48,536 nucleotides of DNA, taken from the NCBI GenBank assembly GCA_964442255.1, contig CAYTYC010000010.1:1-48536 (forward strand), written 5' to 3'. The DNA is from an uncultured archaeon (lineage in GTDB: Archaea; Iainarchaeota; Iainarchaeia; Iainarchaeales; 1-14-0-10-31-34). Made by a program: the position numbers. This document shows, in pieces, positions 27,001 to 36,000 of this stretch (position 1 is its first letter; every line of letters starts with the position of its first letter).

Positions 27001-30000
27001 CCGGTTACCTTCAAAAAAAGGGTCGGGGAAAGCAAAGGCGTGGGGTCAAGCAAAACAAAGGGCCTGATTACGGGAATGCGGATGTGGAAAATGATCCTCC
27101 TCCACTAGCGCCTGAAAAAAATGAAAAGAAAGCCACCCAAAGAAACCAAGGAAATAATTATTGCAATCCAGTCAACCGCGGTTGGAAGGTATTTGAGTTC
27201 AAGTGTGGCCGGCTTACCTGAAAAAACCTTCATTCCATGCAAGTGCTTTTCCACAGGCACTTCCTTTCCGTCGAGGAAGGCCTTCCACCCCGGAAAATAA
27301 TTCACTTTAATGAAGGCCTCGCCAGAGGAAACCTTTGCTTTAATGTAAGTGTTTTCGTATTGCAGCAGTTCCGCGTTTTCAATTAAAGGAGCGTTTTCAG
27401 GCAAAACAAACAAGGCGGGAATTTTTCCGGGTTCCGAAACCGGAAGAAAGCCGCATCCGGAAAGGTAAGCGGAAGCGCCTTCGCTTAAGGAAACCCAGTG
27501 CGTTGTGGATGTGAGGGCAGCGCCTTCCCTGAACTCTTCACAGCCCAAACCCATGGAAACAAGTTTCCGGAATTCAAATCCTTCGCTTAAAGCATAGGCG
27601 TTATAGCCCCAGCCCAAAAGACTGCTTAAATCGTATTTCAGGGAAGAATAAGCGGAAATTATGGGGTCATAGGGAAAAACCTCAAAACGGGTTTTATGCG
27701 GGATTTGCGTTAAAAGGGCGTCAACTTCACTGAAATCCTTTACGCCCCCAAAAGAATAACTGGAAAAACGCGGCTCCTGAAGGAAGTACTGGGAATTTAT
27801 TTTCGGGACAAAAAAAACCGCAAGGAGGAGGAAAGCCGCGGCAAGCGCAAGCGAGTAAGCCGCGGTTTTTTCGCTGAAAACTTTTCGGCGGAAAAGAAAC
27901 ATTCCGGAAAGCAGGAGAACAAAAACGAAGAAAACGTGGAAGCTGTGCGCAAAAGGCTTTTCAATCAGGGGAAGGAAGGGGAAAAAGGTTTGAAGGCAGG
28001 ATAAGGCAAGGGCAAGGGCAAGCAGGCGAAAAATTCTTTCGGAAAAAGGAATGCGCTTCAGCAGGAAGAATGCGAAAACCAGGAGAAGCAAGGCAACAAA
28101 AAAATAGTTTGAGGCCATTATTCCCGCGCTCACCAACTCCAGGCCTGCCTGCGTTGAAACAACGGAAAAGGGAAGGAAAGCGAAAAAGGGAAGAACCCAA
28201 AAAGAGGTTAAGCCTGCGGAAAGCAATCCAACCGAGAAAAGTTTTTTGAGTTCCGGAAGGCTTTTCACCATCACAAGAAAGGCCGGAGCGAGAAAAAAGA
28301 GGGTTGCGGTGTGGCTTAATGCGACAAAGGAAATCGCGAGGCTGGAGAGGAGAAAGTATTTTCTGGAAAAGCCTTTTTCCTCAAGGAATTTATAGAAAAA
28401 AACGAATGCAAACAGGAAAGCAAACCAGGCAAAGAATTCATAGTAGCGGGCAAAAAACTTGAATGTTATCGGGTTCAATGCAAACACAAGGCCCGCGGTT
28501 AGGGAATAGCGCTTGTTCAGCCTGAACAGGTTTCCTATTGGAATGAATGCAAGCGGAACCAGGAGGCGGAGCACGAAAATGCTTAAAGTCAGGGGAAGGG
28601 TGAAGGCACCGAAGCCAAGGAACTTGAAGAAAAGAGGAAGGAAAGAGGGAAGAAAGCCGTCAAAGGTTGAAACCGGCACGCCAAGCAAAAGGTTTTTGCT
28701 CCAGCCCTCAAAGGCGTAATTGTATCTCAGCGCATACCCTGCGTAATCAAATCCCAAATCGTCAAAGAACTGCGTGGAAAAGGCGCTGAAAACAAGGAGA
28801 AGATAGCCGGCAACAATCACCGCATTCAATAAATCGTTTTTTGAAGGCATTTTCCGGTAAAATAAGGGGGCGCAGAGGTTAAATAAATGTTCCGCACCTG
28901 TGAAAAAGGTTTGGATGCTGAACACCAAAAATATTTAATTCAGGAACGGCTTACTGTTAAAGGTTTTTCGGGTGTCAGTGGAGGGCAACCGAAACAGGCG
29001 CTGAAAAACCAATTTCACCCCTTTTCCTGTTTTATTGTGCTTTCTTTGCGGAAACAATGCTTTTTTCACAAGCCTTTAAATTGGTTTGCCTGAAGATTAT
29101 ATAGTTAATTTTCGGATAGGGAAGGGCATGGAATTCAACCTGGAAAAATGCAGGGAAAGGCTGAAAAGCCGGGAAACGCTTTTGCTGCTCGTCATATTTC
29201 TTCTCGCGTTCGGGGTAAGGGCGCACGTGATGTCCTACGAGTACATGTTCGGGTTTGACTCGTACTTTCACGCCAGAATCGTAAGCTACGTGATACAGGA
29301 CGGGGCGGTGCCGGAAGTCGATCCCCTCGCATACTATTACAAGCCGGAGGGGGCAAGCATCGGAAACATAACCCCTGTGTTCTGGTACGGCACGGCACTG
29401 ATATACAATATTTTCACCCTGGGAACGGGATACGACAAGGAAGTGTGGATTGGCTTCGTGAAAATTTTGCCCGCATTGTTCGGGGCATTGATTGCGGTGG
29501 CAATGTATTTTTTCATGAAAGAAGCATACGGAAGAAAGGCCGGGTATGTTGCGGCACTGGTTGCGGCGGTTGTGCCGGCCTTCGTGTACAGGACAATGGC
29601 GGGGTTTTTTGAGGAAGACTCCCTCGGATTTCTGTGGCTCATAATGGGGTTCTATTTTTTCGTTAAAGCGGTTAAGCCAATGGAATTCAACAGGGAAACG
29701 GCAGCCAATGCGCTGATTGCCGCCTTCTTTTTCGTGGTGATGGCGTGGACCTGGGGAATGTTTTTGCTTGTGCCCATAGTGCTGGTCTCGTACTTCACAC
29801 TTAATTTGGCGATGATGGCGCTAAAAAAATTCAAGGCAAAAGAAATCAAGGCGTTTGCCGCGGTTTTTGCGGTGATGTTTGTTGTTTTTGCGGTTGGCGC
29901 GACACTAAAAGACCAGGGGGAATGGGCTTACCGTTCCTATGAATACGTTTCAAACTACCTTCCGGTAAGCGGGGAAAACATTGAAAGATACCAAAGCAAG

Positions 30001-33000: not shown

Positions 33001-36000
33001 TGCAGGAAAAAATTTTAAAAAATCAGGCAGAACATTGATTAATCCTTCCGCTACAAACTTGCTTGCCAGCATCCATCCCTCAAACAGGGCAAATTATCTT
33101 ACCAACTTCTATGACCGCATATCAGCTTTCGCAATTTTACATAAGCCATTTGTGCTTTCCTTGAATTTGGCAATACTTTCCTCTTTTTCTGGTTTCCTGA
33201 AGATGTATAAGTTTTCGTGTGCCAGAAGCAAAAAATTATTTTTTATTGACATGCCTTTCCAAAGGGGGGCTGTTTTAGTATTGTGCTGTGCTTTGATAAC
33301 ATTTTCTTTTAGTATGAAACCAATATCCATAAATGCCTGCAGCGTTCTCGCCGAGATTGGAACCTGGTGCTTATGCCTTCTCGTGTCTCCAATTAAAATA
33401 GCACAATATTTTCCTGGCTTTAGCACTCTCCAGAACTCTTTTGCCACTCTCTTTATTTCTTCTGTAAATTCTTCTATTGAATGAACTTTAGACAAGTCCC
33501 CAGCTTGCTTATGGTTTGAGTTTTTGGTGTAAGAGATTATGCTGGCATAAGGCGGGTGCGTTGCAATTAAATCAACGCTTTCGTCCTTTATCAGGTTTAG
33601 GTTTCTAGCGTCCCCGACATAAGTTTTCTGCGCGGCTTTTGAAAGATTTTGATTAAGAGAGCTGAAGTTAAGCCGATCTCTTGCCAGAATCAATGCTTCT
33701 TTATTTATGTCAACCGCAATGCCATTTCTTCCTGTCAGCTTGCATTCTAATAATGTTGTGCCACTGCCAACAAAAGCATCCAGAACAGCGTCCCCTTCTT
33801 TAGAATATCTCAATATGAGATTCCTTGCCACCTGTGGGGCCCAATTGCCCCTGTACTTTGCATTCAAATAATGTGTTGCCCAGTTCCCCCTTTTTGGAAA
33901 ACTCCAAACAGTATTTGTTTCCAGCTCAAAATCTTTTGGTTGCAATTCTGTTATACCCCACGGTTTTCCTATCTCGAGTTCAGTATCTTCGATAACTATT
34001 TTTTTGGTTTTTTTGACAAACTCAAGATAATCTGTTTGGGTTAGCTCCTGCATTGTAATTAATGATTCTTGAGTTTTCGGCACTAATTTTTGTTCCAGCA
34101 TGCCATCAATCCTGCTTTTTGTGGTTATTCTGGGCCCATCCCTTCATCAAACTATTAAGCTTTGTTGATACTTTAATATCCATTTTTTCACAGAGCTTCT
34201 TGAATTCTTCAAGGGTTTCCGCATCAACAGTGATTGTTATTGGAACTTTCCCCACAAAACCACCTAAAAATATTTACTTCTATGTATTTATATTTATTTT
34301 GTTGGTGTTATAAGTTTTTCACTGCCGATTTTTTGCATGAAACATATTTTATACACTACTAACGAAGGAGCCCAAATTTTTTGCCTCCCTGGAAAAAAGA
34401 AACAATCCAAATACGATTTTATTGTCAAATACCAAGAACCAAGCAAAAGGGAGAGAACCCCAAAACATATTCACCTGATTGTCGAAATGTATGTAAAGTA
34501 TGCGCACAACCCGCAATTAGCCATGAAACTAAGGGACTATTTTTTATCTATTTTTGATTCAATTAAGCCAGTTACTGCATATCCCCCAAAATTGCAAATT
34601 TTTGATAAACGCAAGATAAAGGGATTTGAAGATTTAAATAAGGTCGGAGAATTCTCAGCAGAATTTTTAATGGTTGCAACAGAACTCATACTAATTCAAG
34701 AAAAAACCAATTACCCCCAAGGCTCTCTGACAAGGAAACTCTATGCAGACTTCGGGGTTAAAGACAGATTTGCAGTAATAAGCCAAGCAACGCAGACAAG
34801 GTTTGGATAATTTTGCCAGTTTTTCCTTTCATTCATTTCTTTTCTTATGTTCTTCACATTTTTCATGATATCCGACTTTTCTTTTTCATTTAAACTGCGG
34901 CGGCTGAAGCCCGCCGGGTTTTTGCTCCCGTAAACAGCCTGCGAAAACCCCGATTCATCCGCCCATTGAAACAGGCGGGGTTCCCGGAAAGGGTTTCCAA
35001 TATTCTATGGCATCNNNNNNNNNNNNNNNNNNNNNNNNNNNNNNNNNNNNNNNNNNNNNNNNNNNNNNNNNNNNNNNNNNNNNNNNNNNNNNNNNNNNNN
35101 NNNNNNNNNNNNNNGTTCCCGGAAAGGGTTTCCAATATTCTATGGCATCCGCCATAGCCAGCGGAGCATTACCTGGAAGCTCTATCTTAAAAAAAAACTC
35201 CTGCAACGGAGAGACTTAATCCATGTAGCCTGTCCTTATGCAGTTGTCGCAAACGGTTTTACCTGAAGGTTTTCTGCTTGCGACAGCCTTTCTTGCGGCA
35301 ACGTATTTTTCGTTGTTCCAGATTCTTTTGAATCCCCCTTTGAAGGCGTTGCCGAAGTCCTCTTTTTCAAAGTAGACGCCGCAGCACGGGCTGACCGAGC
35401 CGTTTGCGTTCACAACAGAAACAAGCCAAAGGTAATAGCAGTATTTCCGCAAAAGCTTTCTGCGCTTTTCGGAGTAATCATAGCGGCTCAGCTTTTCATC
35501 CGAGGGAAGCCAGAAAGCGGTTTCCTCAATCCTTTTCCTGTCCTCCTCGTAGATTTCCTTTGCGAGGTCCCCGCGCACACAGCCCACAACAACCCTGTCA
35601 ACGCCGAGCTCTTTCCTTTTTTCCTCAAGGAGCGGAATTTCCTTTTCGTTGTGCTTCATTGCAAGGAACTGCCAGACAATCGCAGGGGTTTTGGAGCCCA
35701 GCCTTTTTCTTGCGCCGGAAACCAGCCTGAAGTTTTTGAACACCGTGTCAATTCTGCCTTTCTTCCTGTATTTTTCGTATACCTCCTGCGTGATTCCATC
35801 GGCGGAAACATACAATTGGTCAAGGCCGCTTTTCACGAGCGCTTCGGCCTGTTTTTCGTTCAGGGGAACGTTTAGGTTGGAGTTCACGCTTGTGCGGATC
35901 CTTTTTTTGTGCGCATAGTTTATTATTTCAATGAGTTCCCTGTTCAGGAATGGCTCGCCCCAGTTGTTTAAGTCTATTTCATAAAGAAAGGGGTGCATTT

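Follow-up and report, generated by a model that had tools for sequence, protein, structure and literature searches.

Oligosaccharyltransferase (OST) genes are commonly clustered with glycosyltransferase (GT) genes in Euryarchaeota, where N-glycans are built on dolichyl phosphate (Dol-P) even if an Alg7 homologue is encoded, e.g., in M. voltae, and DPANN AglB resembles euryarchaeal AglB (sections of the Agl24 paper, PMC8993221). For Sulfolobus acidocaldarius, sections of the same paper (PMC8993221) describe an archaeal dolichyl-diphosphate (Dol-PP) pathway with AglB, an Alg7 homologue (AglH) and a MurG/Alg13-14-family enzyme (Agl24), families that are also encoded at the locus reported here. 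Bacterial enzymes with the same two-polypeptide architecture and similar sizes are EpsE-EpsF, encoded with EpsD on Lactococcus plasmid pNZ4000, PssD/PssE and Cps14F/Cps14G. We take pNZ4000 to be the characterised NIZO B40 eps plasmid.

The window analysed here is a 48,536-nucleotide stretch from an archaeon of the order Iainarchaeales, whose 1.28-Mb genome (93.8% complete) yielded single matches to STT3 and Alg14 and two to PF00953. At 29128-33018 (+), genes for AglB/STT3, a polyprenyl-phosphate HexNAc-1-phosphate transferase (PNPT), an Alg14-like half and an Alg13-like half follow one another head to tail (Table 1).

Gene layout, protein families and surroundings

The ORFs and Pfam families of these four co-directional genes are those named in a preliminary description of this DNA, and the short gaps and terminal overlap given there were recovered: 16 nt between aglB and the PNPT gene (31039-31054), 15 nt between the PNPT and Alg14 genes (32051-32065), and a stop/start overlap of the last pair. 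Translated from an ATG at 32455, the Alg13 half has 187 aa and its gene overlaps the Alg14 gene by 58 nt; from a TTG at 32509, which shares bases with the Alg14 TGA stop (TTGA), it has 169 aa. The TTG appears the likelier start because the beginning of its product coincides with that of the Pfam match and of the alignments of relatives. The genes are packed too tightly for promoters to fit between them, and if the TTATATA upstream of aglB is a TATA box, a leaderless or near-leaderless operon transcript is possible.

Table 1 Features of the operon and its surroundings in the window
Feature	Position	Strand	Details
GT2, AglJ / dolichyl-phosphate-hexose-synthase-like	26194..27108	+	304 aa; PF00535 59 bits
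Polytopic membrane protein divergent from aglB	27105..28928	-	607 aa; 12-13 hydrophobic segments
TTATATA, possible archaeal TATA box	29097..29103	+	Read from sequence; 25-31 nt upstream of AglB ATG
aglB, oligosaccharyltransferase (STT3/AglB)	29128..31038	+	636 aa; Pfam STT3, AglB_core-like
Alg7/AglH-type PNPT	31055..32050	+	331 aa; PF00953 (Glycos_transf_4)
Alg14-like / PssD-Cps14F-type half, acceptor-side N-domain of split GT-B	32066..32512	+	148 aa; PF08660
Alg13-like / PssE-Cps14G-type half, UDP-sugar-binding C-domain	32509..33018	+	169 aa from TTG; PF04101
Co-directional glycan island	36410..47680	+	Pfam and NCBIfam scans
Island: GT1	36410	+	Pfam/NCBIfam
Island: SDR epimerase/dehydratase	37592	+	Pfam/NCBIfam
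Island: GT2	38672	+	Pfam/NCBIfam
Island: SDR	39567	+	Pfam/NCBIfam
Island: dTDP-glucose 4,6-dehydratase	40602	+	RmlB 425.8 bits (cut-off 365)
Island: inositol-monophosphatase family	41513	+	Pfam/NCBIfam
Island: sugar-1-P nucleotidyltransferase	42325	+	Pfam/NCBIfam
Island: B12-binding radical SAM	43062	+	Pfam/NCBIfam
Island: GT2	44518	+	Pfam/NCBIfam
Island: GT1	45327	+	Pfam/NCBIfam
Island: GT1	46583	+	Pfam/NCBIfam

AglB, the sole STT3 copy of the genome, scored 73.4 bits against Pfam STT3 (cut-off 24.5) and 44.7 bits against AglB_core-like (cut-off 27), and about 11 hydrophobic segments occupy its N-terminal two thirds. Among solved structures, AglB is closest to human STT3A (E = 1.8e-22), WWDEGHWIT lying opposite WWDYGYQIT and FDSYFHAR opposite FDPYFNYR. 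The PNPT matched Glycos_transf_4 (PF00953) with 114.9 bits; human DPAGT1 (E = 1.5e-15; 60.6 bits) ranked ahead of MraY (2e-10; 43.7 bits) among solved structures, and NAFNMLAGFNGLEAG aligned opposite DPAGT1 NAINILAGINGLEAG, in agreement with the Alg7-type call made previously.

The Alg14 half matched Pfam Alg14 (PF08660, 70.9 bits) and NCBIfam PssD/Cps14F (150 bits, cut-off 110), and the Alg13 half Glyco_tran_28_C (PF04101, 67.5 bits) and NCBIfam PssE/Cps14G (122.8 bits, cut-off 120), the NCBIfam cut-offs being equivalog cut-offs. GGH and E105 of the Alg14 half are invariant in 31 relatives, and its AlphaFold model (pLDDT 92.6) has the MurG N-domain as best fold match (3s2u, TMq 0.81). The Alg13 half model (pLDDT 89) matched GT-B C-domains, and yeast ALG13 was the best PDB match of a profile built from 31 relatives (E = 1.7e-6). 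The EHxNDHQ and H-G-G motifs found here recur in EpsF of Lactococcus and in a Rhizobium pair of glucuronosyltransferase type; the conserved motifs of the split pair do not distinguish donors.

In NCBIfam, the GT2 upstream of the operon only weakly matched AglJ (97 bits against a cut-off of 325) and a Dol-P hexose transferase. The divergent membrane protein had no Pfam or NCBIfam match; its neighbours in the ESM Atlas carry the name PTPS-related membrane protein (score 0.98), with PF10131 assigned to 24% of one cluster, and as a lead only, it is possibly GT-C-like (PTPS_related/YfhO-like). The operon matches the downstream island in GC content. Within the window, no flippase was found, and Pfam and NCBIfam scans revealed no Wzy-type polymerase; three Wzx-like genes lie on another contig. 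Since the larger island also holds at least six further GT genes as well as nucleotide-sugar genes, calling the module self-contained, as had been proposed, is too strong. The genome had no PHPT match (PF02397, 0 matches at 93.8% completeness), no peptidoglycan genes and no bifunctional GlmU at its cut-off. Hexosamine synthesis is available through GlmS (648.5 bits), and a UDP-glucose/ManNAc-dehydrogenase-type gene makes uronic acid donors possible.

Distribution within and outside Iainarchaeales

To profile the genomic context, ±9 kb were fetched around all 147 Alg14 matches of the order, which come from 145 of 196 genomes, and the proteins of the window served as tblastn queries against these regions. 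Alg13 was detected at 143 of the loci, PNPT at 125 and AglB at 121. The exact order AglB>PNPT>Alg14>Alg13 was found at 96 loci from as many genomes (45 of 62 genera, 23 of 30 families), and four further loci are colinear but truncated by a contig end. At 19 loci, all from one family, the arrangement is divergent (AglB-PNPT / Alg14-Alg13), 17 were uninformative owing to a contig end, and 11 had neither form; nine of these 11 lacked AglB within 9 kb although the flank was sufficient, and at two AglB was present in another arrangement. Within four ORFs of Alg13, the 96 colinear loci encode relatives of the GT2 (71 loci), SDR (40), GT1 (23) and B12-binding radical SAM proteins (19) of the island. 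With 96 four-gene loci among 147, the previously noted linkage of AglB/STT3 to Alg14/13 goes far beyond chance; the earlier counts of 67 genomes with STT3 and 89 with the Alg7-type gene near Alg14, offered as floors, were indeed lower bounds, and the linkage is stronger.

The PNPT is present in 188 of 196 genomes and adjoins AglB even in the two families in which Alg14/13 are mostly missing (12 of 12 fetched loci), so throughout the order AglB appears to be tied to a PP-linked primer. Of the 73 genera of Iainarchaeales, 63 have the Alg14/13 pair, which is absent from all 19 genomes of the phylum outside the order. Among 20 archaeal loci from outside the order, seven have PNPT>Alg14>Alg13; such trios occur in Hydrothermarchaeota and Aenigmatarchaeota, and one Aenigmatarchaeota locus has STT3>Alg14>Alg13. 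At 20 bacterial loci with the closest relatives, a nearby PNPT gene was confirmed by Pfam in six cases and detected by tblastn in three. Near-confinement to Iainarchaeales, as initially stated, thus holds in the sampled loci for the four-gene colinear form and fails for its parts. Homologues of the split pair on plasmids of lactic acid bacteria (36-43% identity) and in Bacillaceae (38-48%) overlap the within-order range of 41-65%. In a concatenated tree the backbone was unresolved, and the sequences cluster by the order's own families.

Proposed pathway and alternative readings

We consider it likely that the operon serves protein N-glycosylation, providing its two initial steps in the cytoplasm and its final step outside, and we read it as supplying the start and the end of a pathway built on dolichyl diphosphate. 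Protein families and folds, operon structure and conservation are shown by the results above; lipid, acceptor, heterodimer and linkage are what we infer, as follows. The PNPT would transfer HexNAc-1-phosphate, most likely GlcNAc-1-P, from a UDP-sugar to dolichyl phosphate, yielding HexNAc-PP-dolichol. The soluble Alg14-like and Alg13-like proteins, translated from what would be overlapping stop and start codons, may form a bipartite MurG-like GT-B enzyme that adds a second sugar, probably beta-1,4. Further GTs encoded nearby would extend the glycan, a flippase encoded elsewhere would turn it outward, and AglB would transfer it to Asn. Because the genome has no PHPT, the Glc-PP-lipid on which bacterial EpsE/F systems act is an unlikely acceptor here, and the split enzyme most likely uses the product of the PNPT. 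Order-wide synteny with the sole AglB gene argues for a role of the DPANN 'EpsE/F-like' pair in N-glycan assembly, as the preliminary description had suggested, and we regard this functional assignment as sound. The layout parallels the way in which the eukaryotic pathway begins, and most of the order has kept it.

Given that the operon does this job, GlcNAc as the second sugar is a tentative choice to which we give slightly less than an even chance, leaving the rest to another sugar; with GlcNAc, the core would be chitobiose, like that of eukaryotes and Sulfolobus. The GlcNAc-GlcNAc (chitobiose) product originally put forward is not demonstrated by the pair itself, which exceeds the NCBIfam cut-offs for PssD/PssE-Cps14F/G and has EHxNDHQ in common with relatives of the Glc and GlcA types. 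Even enzymes that use UDP-GlcNAc do not conserve the residues of the donor site, and characterised members of the split clade use UDP-Glc or UDP-Gal (sections of the Agl24 paper, PMC8993221). It is accordingly quite possible, if on the doubtful side, that in the same pathway the split enzyme adds Glc, Gal, GlcA or a modified HexNAc/uronic acid to HexNAc-PP-dolichol, in which case the N-glycan core would not be chitobiose. This would suit the UDP-sugar dehydrogenase encoded in the genome, the Rhizobium relative annotated as a glucuronosyltransferase that adjoins UDP-glucose dehydrogenase, and the SDR epimerases/dehydratases, which lie within four ORFs of Alg13 at 40 of the 96 colinear loci and immediately 3' of it in Aenigmatarchaeota-type loci. 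GlcNAc is favoured instead by the outgroup MurG, the sister Agl24 and eukaryotic Alg13/14, all of which use UDP-GlcNAc on HexNAc-PP-lipid according to sections of PMC8993221, by an acceptor context (PNPT, no PHPT) that fits these enzymes and not the Glc-PP-lipid systems, and by yeast ALG13 ranking first among solved structures for the Alg13-half profile.

Adjacency of the PNPT is no proof that AglB uses its product, since euryarchaeal N-glycans are Dol-P-linked despite Alg7 homologues and DPANN AglB is euryarchaeal-like (sections of PMC8993221). The PNPT and Alg14/13 could make the PP-linked precursor of another surface polymer, e.g., a secondary-cell-wall-type polysaccharide or glycolipid; AglB would then use a Dol-P-linked donor and adjoin them only as a member of a general envelope-glycan island. 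The Dol-P-hexose-synthase-like GT2 and the possible GT-C protein just upstream point this way, as do the closest bacterial relatives, which cluster with Wzy/O-antigen-ligase-like, MurJ-like, pyruvyl-transferase and SLH-domain genes in what resemble cell-wall polymer loci. We nevertheless regard this reading as unlikely given the 15-16 nt gaps, the single gene order in 96 genomes of 45 genera, the AglB-PNPT adjacency that holds even in the absence of Alg14/13 and the remaining island genes, and the lack of any Wzy-type polymerase seen in the window. Even less probable, to a degree that we would almost dismiss, is a recently acquired bacterial exopolysaccharide cassette beside aglB without functional tie. 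Bacterial homologues are almost as similar as some in-order ones, and DPANN and bacterial sequences are interspersed in published trees (sections of PMC8993221); against this, the pair is widespread in the order and absent from the other genomes of the phylum, its tree follows the order's own families, its arrangement is fixed and translationally coupled, and the GC content is that of the downstream island.

Comparison with known systems

The aglB clusters of Haloferax and Methanococcus likewise combine the OST gene with pathway GT genes, but have a Dol-P basis and GT2-type primers such as AglJ/AglK (sections of PMC8993221). The split Alg14/13 pair is not reported there, and our literature search found no paper describing it next to aglB.

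On pNZ4000, a primer transferase, an Alg14-like and an Alg13-like gene follow in the same order, abutting or overlapping, with 35.8% identity to a pNZ4000 protein. The slot upstream of the pair is taken there by a PHPT 'sugar transferase' and here by an Alg7-type PNPT; the gene order is therefore common and the primer enzyme different. Bacterial Eps/Pss/Cps systems produce exopolysaccharide repeat units, whereas the partner here is a protein oligosaccharyltransferase.

As described in sections of PMC8993221, Sulfolobus Agl24 depends on an essential GGH motif that is kept here, but it is a single fused polypeptide of a separate clade, and agl24 lies eight genes from aglB with aglH far off, whereas the genes here are split and contiguous. 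MraY-MurG of peptidoglycan synthesis also has a PNPT followed by a GT-B enzyme acting on its PP-linked HexNAc product, and the MurG N-domain is the best Alg14-half fold match; MurG, however, is a fused protein with a membrane-binding patch of its own, and the PNPT here scores lower against MraY than against DPAGT1.

The eukaryotic Alg7 (DPAGT1)-Alg13/Alg14-STT3 system comprises the same four families, including the Alg14-like/Alg13-like split, and among solved structures its LLO initiation and OST enzymes DPAGT1, yeast ALG13 and STT3A come closest to the PNPT, the Alg13-half profile and AglB, respectively. This AglB is without the NNTWNNT double sequon of the STT3A alignment, and the Alg14 half, in which no hydrophobic segment was found, is missing the N-terminal transmembrane anchor of eukaryotic Alg14. 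The eukaryotic genes are dispersed, whereas here they form one operon.

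The four operon genes and their products

An ORF check and a Pfam scan recovered all four genes on the + strand where the preliminary description had placed them (table), and the spacing of about 15 nt with an overlap of the last pair that it had claimed agrees with measured gaps of 16 and 15 nt and an overlap at the end. The Alg13-like ORF as first called begins at ATG 32455. A TTG at 32509, overlapping the TGA stop of the Alg14-like gene (TTGA), is the likelier true start, as the resulting 169-aa protein begins where the Pfam match and the alignments of relatives start. Such an overlap would imply translational coupling of the two halves. 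The next gene downstream, a DNA methyltransferase, lies on the other strand, so the transcription unit would end at 33018, and TTATATA, read from the sequence 25–31 nt upstream of the AglB ATG, may be its promoter. No RNA sequencing runs containing the operon were listed; it was present in two DNA runs from one study.

Coordinates of the operon and of neighboring features in the window
Feature	Position	Strand or location	Basis or content
TATA-binding-protein gene	19277-20032	upstream of operon	
Dol-P-hexose-synthase-like GT2	26194-27108	upstream of operon	NCBIfam
Polytopic 607-aa ORF	27105-28928	-	12-13 hydrophobic segments; ESM Atlas neighbors are PTPS-related membrane protein and YfhO-like clusters
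aglB	29128-31038	+	Pfam STT3 and AglB_core-like, above gathering scores
PNPT	31055-32050	+	Pfam Glycos_transf_4, above gathering score
Alg14-like half	32066-32512	+	Pfam Alg14, above gathering score
Alg13-like half (ORF as first called)	32455-33018	+	Pfam Glyco_tran_28_C, above gathering score
Stretch between Alg13 and rest of island	33109-36361		DNA N6/N4 methyltransferase (-), family-less 157-aa ORF, radical SAM/SPASM gene (-)
B12-radical-SAM + GT2 pair	43062-45492	10 kb downstream	

AglB contains the STT3 (73.4 bits; cut-off 24.5) and AglB core (44.7 bits; cut-off 27) domains of Pfam, and scored 149 bits against NCBIfam archaeo_STT3, under the subfamily cut-off of 450. Among solved structures, human STT3A (E 1.8e-22) and yeast Stt3 matched it better than the AglB of Archaeoglobus or Pyrococcus did. 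When aligned to human STT3A, it shows the WWDxG catalytic motif (WWDEGHWIT opposite WWDYGYQIT) and the acidic residues of the first external loop (FDSYFHAR/FDPYFNYR and AGFFEEDS/AGSYDNEG), and lacks the eukaryotic NNTWNNT double sequon. These domains and motifs predict an STT3-family transferase of lipid-linked glycan to sequon Asn.

The polyprenyl-phosphate HexNAc-1-phosphate transferase (PNPT; PF00953, 114.9 bits) is a polytopic membrane protein with about 10 hydrophobic segments, and is closer to the eukaryotic GPT, i.e., human DPAGT1 (E 1.5e-15, 60.6 bits), than to MraY (E 2e-10, 43.7 bits) or WecA (NCBIfam, only 36 bits). Its cytoplasmic-loop motif has the N-x-x-N-x-x-A-G-x-N-G-L-E-A-G form and aligns residue by residue with that of DPAGT1; N163, A164, N166, M167, L168, G170, N172, E175 and G177 were invariant across 31 relatives. 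Going by its family, the protein would be a UDP-GlcNAc:dolichyl-P GlcNAc-1-P transferase. The other of the two PF00953 matches in the genome is a divergent PNPT encoded elsewhere, abutted by a hydrophobic 324-aa ORF (fetched locus L004:243-1217).

The Alg14-like half matched Pfam Alg14 at 70.9 bits, covering only profile positions 76-170 of 171. Its GGH loop (G10 G11 H12), described as essential in the study of Sulfolobus acidocaldarius Agl24 (PMC8993221), was invariant among relatives. The AlphaFold model (pLDDT 92.6) superposed best on the MurG N-domain, and a sequence search against solved structures returned no match. No hydrophobic segment was found in this half (N-terminus, MKVCLVCSAGGH), which thus lacks the N-terminal transmembrane anchor by which eukaryotic Alg14 recruits Alg13. 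A complex prediction of PNPT with Alg14+Alg13, run without controls, gave no answer (score 0.00) and counts neither for nor against recruitment of the anchorless pair by PNPT. The Alg13-like half matched PF04101 (Glyco_tran_28_C; 67.5 bits) and has the H-x-G-x-G and D/N-H-Q motifs; a fold search with its model (pLDDT 89) returned GT-B C-domains. As a single sequence it gave weak matches only to solved structures, and the profile of its relatives matched yeast ALG13 best, with ISHAGAG/ISHAGTG and NDHQ/DNHQ aligned. The NCBIfam equivalogs were PssD/Cps14F for the Alg14-like half (150 bits; cut-off 110) and PssE/Cps14G for the Alg13-like half (122.8 bits; cut-off 120), and the sizes of 148 and 169 aa fit the two-polypeptide PssD/PssE-type split (about 150 and 160 aa). 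By sequence, both halves belong to the prokaryotic split family in which exopolysaccharide enzymes are also found.

Conservation within Iainarchaeales

Alg14 was detected in 145 of the 196 genomes of the order (50 of 55 high-quality genomes, 63 of 73 genera) and in none of the phylum's 19 other genomes, and STT3 and PNPT were found in 174 and 188 of the 196, respectively. The window genome has one STT3 and one Alg14. For each of the 147 Alg14 matches, we searched as much as 9 kb of flank on either side with the window's proteins. The colinear form AglB>PNPT>Alg14>Alg13 was found at 96 of these loci, spanning 45 of 62 genera and 23 of 30 families, and another four were colinear and interrupted by a contig end. 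A divergent form, with PNPT<AglB< facing away from Alg14>Alg13>, was restricted to a single family (13 loci, and 6 of the same form cut in AglB). The others were PNPT-Alg14-Alg13 loci whose contig ends before AglB could appear (n = 9), pairs with short flanks (n = 8), pairs lacking both AglB and PNPT despite an upstream flank of 3.3 kb or more (n = 7), trios without AglB (n = 2), and other arrangements (n = 2). Overall, 119 of 130 informative loci showed one or the other of these fixed forms, with AglB next to the pair; at two more, AglB was within 9 kb in another arrangement.

Two families are mostly without Alg14/13, and there AglB>PNPT was kept and followed by unrelated genes at all 12 fetched loci; AglB-PNPT is therefore the order-wide invariant and Alg14-Alg13 an addition in most lineages. 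A few genomes of otherwise pair-less families (loci L035 and L036 of family f8, L037 of family f2) encode a divergent Alg14/Alg13 pair that forms a long branch and aligns over the full length of the Pfam Alg14 model (up to 124 bits). At L035 the Alg13 half is without the EHxNDHQ motif and the pair adjoins neither AglB nor PNPT. The divergent pair may be another paralogue or have been acquired separately. Three public contigs whose records bear the titles Chloroflexi bacterium, Candidatus Falkowbacteria and Candidatus Micrarchaeota (L208, L209 and L219) also contain the complete operon. These are identical to contigs of genomes placed in the order (L129, L073 and L119, respectively), so the titles look like mislabelled bins.

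The surrounding glycan island

The operon is located in a glycosylation island. The 607-aa ORF upstream of aglB had no Pfam or NCBIfam match, and together with the adjoining GT2 could form a GtrB/YfhO-type pair that decorates glycans on the outer side of the membrane. In Aenigmatarchaeota-type loci (L210, L230, L233 and L182), PNPT also has PTPS_related and PMT_2 proteins as neighbors. From 36.4 kb on, the window encodes five further GTs, SDR enzymes, RmlB, a nucleotidyltransferase and a B12-radical-SAM protein. A GT2 of about 296 aa was found within four ORFs of Alg13 in 71 of the 96 colinear loci, and immediately after it in 46. The stretch that separates Alg13 from the rest of the island in the window looks like a local insertion or rearrangement; most relatives have a GT2 directly after Alg13. 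In Hydrothermarchaeota-type loci, Alg13 is directly followed by a B12-binding radical SAM gene and then a GT2, and in Aenigmatarchaeota-type loci these two genes come before Alg14 (L195, L199, L203, L207, L220, L229, L210 and L230); the same pair of genes is present in the window. It may represent a conserved sugar-modifying step (possibly C-methylation) tied to the pathway of the operon. A TATA-binding-protein gene lies about 9 kb upstream of the operon in the window, and in 18 of the 96 colinear loci one is found no more than three ORFs ahead of AglB, indicating that a wider synteny block is conserved.

The operon had been described as a self-contained module. As no Wzx-type flippase was detected in the window (three are encoded on another contig), the four genes are better regarded as a core. 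A PF03706 (LPG_synthase_TM, MprF-flippase-like) membrane protein encoded directly after Alg13 on the same strand in 11 of the 96 colinear loci (e.g., L170:9741-10730) is a candidate lipid-linked-oligosaccharide flippase.

Relatives outside the order and the predicted pathway

Scanning a single genome for each species gave 80 loci: 40 from the order itself, 20 from other archaea and 20 from bacteria. The colinear four-gene operon was not found in the 20 other archaeal loci, many of them on short contigs. PNPT>Alg14>Alg13 was present in seven (Hydrothermarchaeota, a Methanobacteriota MAG and further archaea), often followed by the B12-radical-SAM and GT2 genes, five had a PNPT within about 6 kb, and one Aenigmatarchaeota locus had STT3>Alg14>Alg13. 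Near confinement to Iainarchaeales, as first proposed, therefore applies, in the loci sampled, to the four-gene colinear form and not to its parts. The 20 bacterial loci show 38-48% identity, and nine of them have PNPT genes nearby (six Pfam-confirmed); no PHPT, the PF02397 primer class of bacterial EpsE/F-type systems, was detected among 68 ORFs scanned, a subset of the ORFs of those loci. The closest bacterial relatives (L246-L259, Bacillaceae) are in clusters with GT1, Wzy/O-antigen-ligase-like protein, MurJ-like flippase, pyruvyl transferase, SLH-domain protein, UDP-sugar dehydrogenase and TagO/WecA-like PNPT. Such clusters look like secondary-cell-wall-polymer loci, and their pair too would act on a HexNAc-PP-lipid. 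We built a concatenated Alg14+Alg13 tree of 110 rows, made up of the window, 19 bacterial loci, 19 archaeal loci from outside the order and, for the order, a single representative of each gene pattern per genus, from which 40 loci duplicating in-order loci had been removed and which held no eukaryotic, Agl24 or MurG sequences. With an unresolved backbone, the tree supports no claim of monophyly for the order's sequences and none on the direction of transfer.

Given its family, the pair might be expected to act on a hexose-PP-lipid from a PHPT primer, in an exopolysaccharide or capsule locus with Wzx/Wzy and chain-length regulators. The genome has no PF02397 match, its only polyprenyl-phosphate sugar-phosphate transferases are the two PNPTs, and the neighbors of the pair are PNPT and an oligosaccharyltransferase. 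With no PHPT and a PNPT in the operon, the acceptor of the split GT-B is most simply the HexNAc-PP-dolichol of the operon PNPT, which the pair would take as Alg13/14, Agl24 and MurG do. We consider it likely that the operon performs the start and finish of N-glycosylation. The main caveat comes from the Agl24 paper (PMC8993221), according to which Euryarchaeota use Dol-P carriers even where an Alg7 homologue exists, and DPANN AglB is said to be of euryarchaeal type.

For the donor, the EHxNDHQ and H-G-G motifs were rejected as specificity markers, being also present in EpsF of the Lactococcus plasmid pNZ4000 and in a Rhizobium pair. The conserved motifs of the pair are common to Glc-, GlcA- and GlcNAc-type relatives, and donor-site residues are described in the Agl24 paper (PMC8993221) as not conserved. 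The genome encodes GlmS, a UDP-sugar dehydrogenase and a GlmM-like protein scoring under the cut-off, with no bifunctional GlmU at cut-off, and could supply several UDP-sugars. If the operon does serve N-glycosylation, whether the second sugar is GlcNAc is a close call, tipping slightly toward no.

No prior description of an aglB-Alg7-Alg14-Alg13 operon, or of N-glycosylation in Iainarchaeota/Diapherotrites, was found in the literature searched (subscription papers lay outside its scope). All four families were already known; what appears to be new is the joining of a split Alg14/13 to Alg7 and AglB, and its conservation throughout an order. The origin of eukaryotic Alg13/Alg14 is disputed, with bacterial (Lombard 2016) and archaeal (Meyer et al. 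2022) sources proposed, and that debate left open what the archaeal split 'EpsE/F-like' proteins do. The four-gene operon in 45 genera ties these proteins to an oligosaccharyltransferase and an Alg7-type primer, and so recasts an open question of phylogeny as a biochemical test of modest size, involving three proteins that are soluble or can be expressed and a UDP-sugar panel.

A further prediction from the operon is that a DPANN lineage N-glycosylates its proteins by a Dol-PP-based route. In its full form, i.e., a whole DPANN order making Dol-PP N-glycans with a GlcNAc-beta-1,4-GlcNAc core, using split Alg14/Alg13 in one operon with Alg7 and STT3/AglB, the proposal is tentative and on balance we doubt it. 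If true, the complete eukaryote-type start-and-finish set would be a single transcription unit, the split Alg13/14 architecture would have worked in archaeal protein N-glycosylation outside Asgard and TACK, and the Dol-PP route would not be limited to Crenarchaeota and eukaryotes. The archaeal 'EpsE/F-like' clade would then have an ancestral N-glycosylation role, and the bacterial polysaccharide enzymes may derive from it. The compact set may serve as a minimal glyco-engineering module. The setting of the pair differs from that on pNZ4000, where the pair comes after a PHPT 'sugar transferase' in a Wzz and kinase context, whereas in the window its neighbors are a PNPT and an oligosaccharyltransferase.
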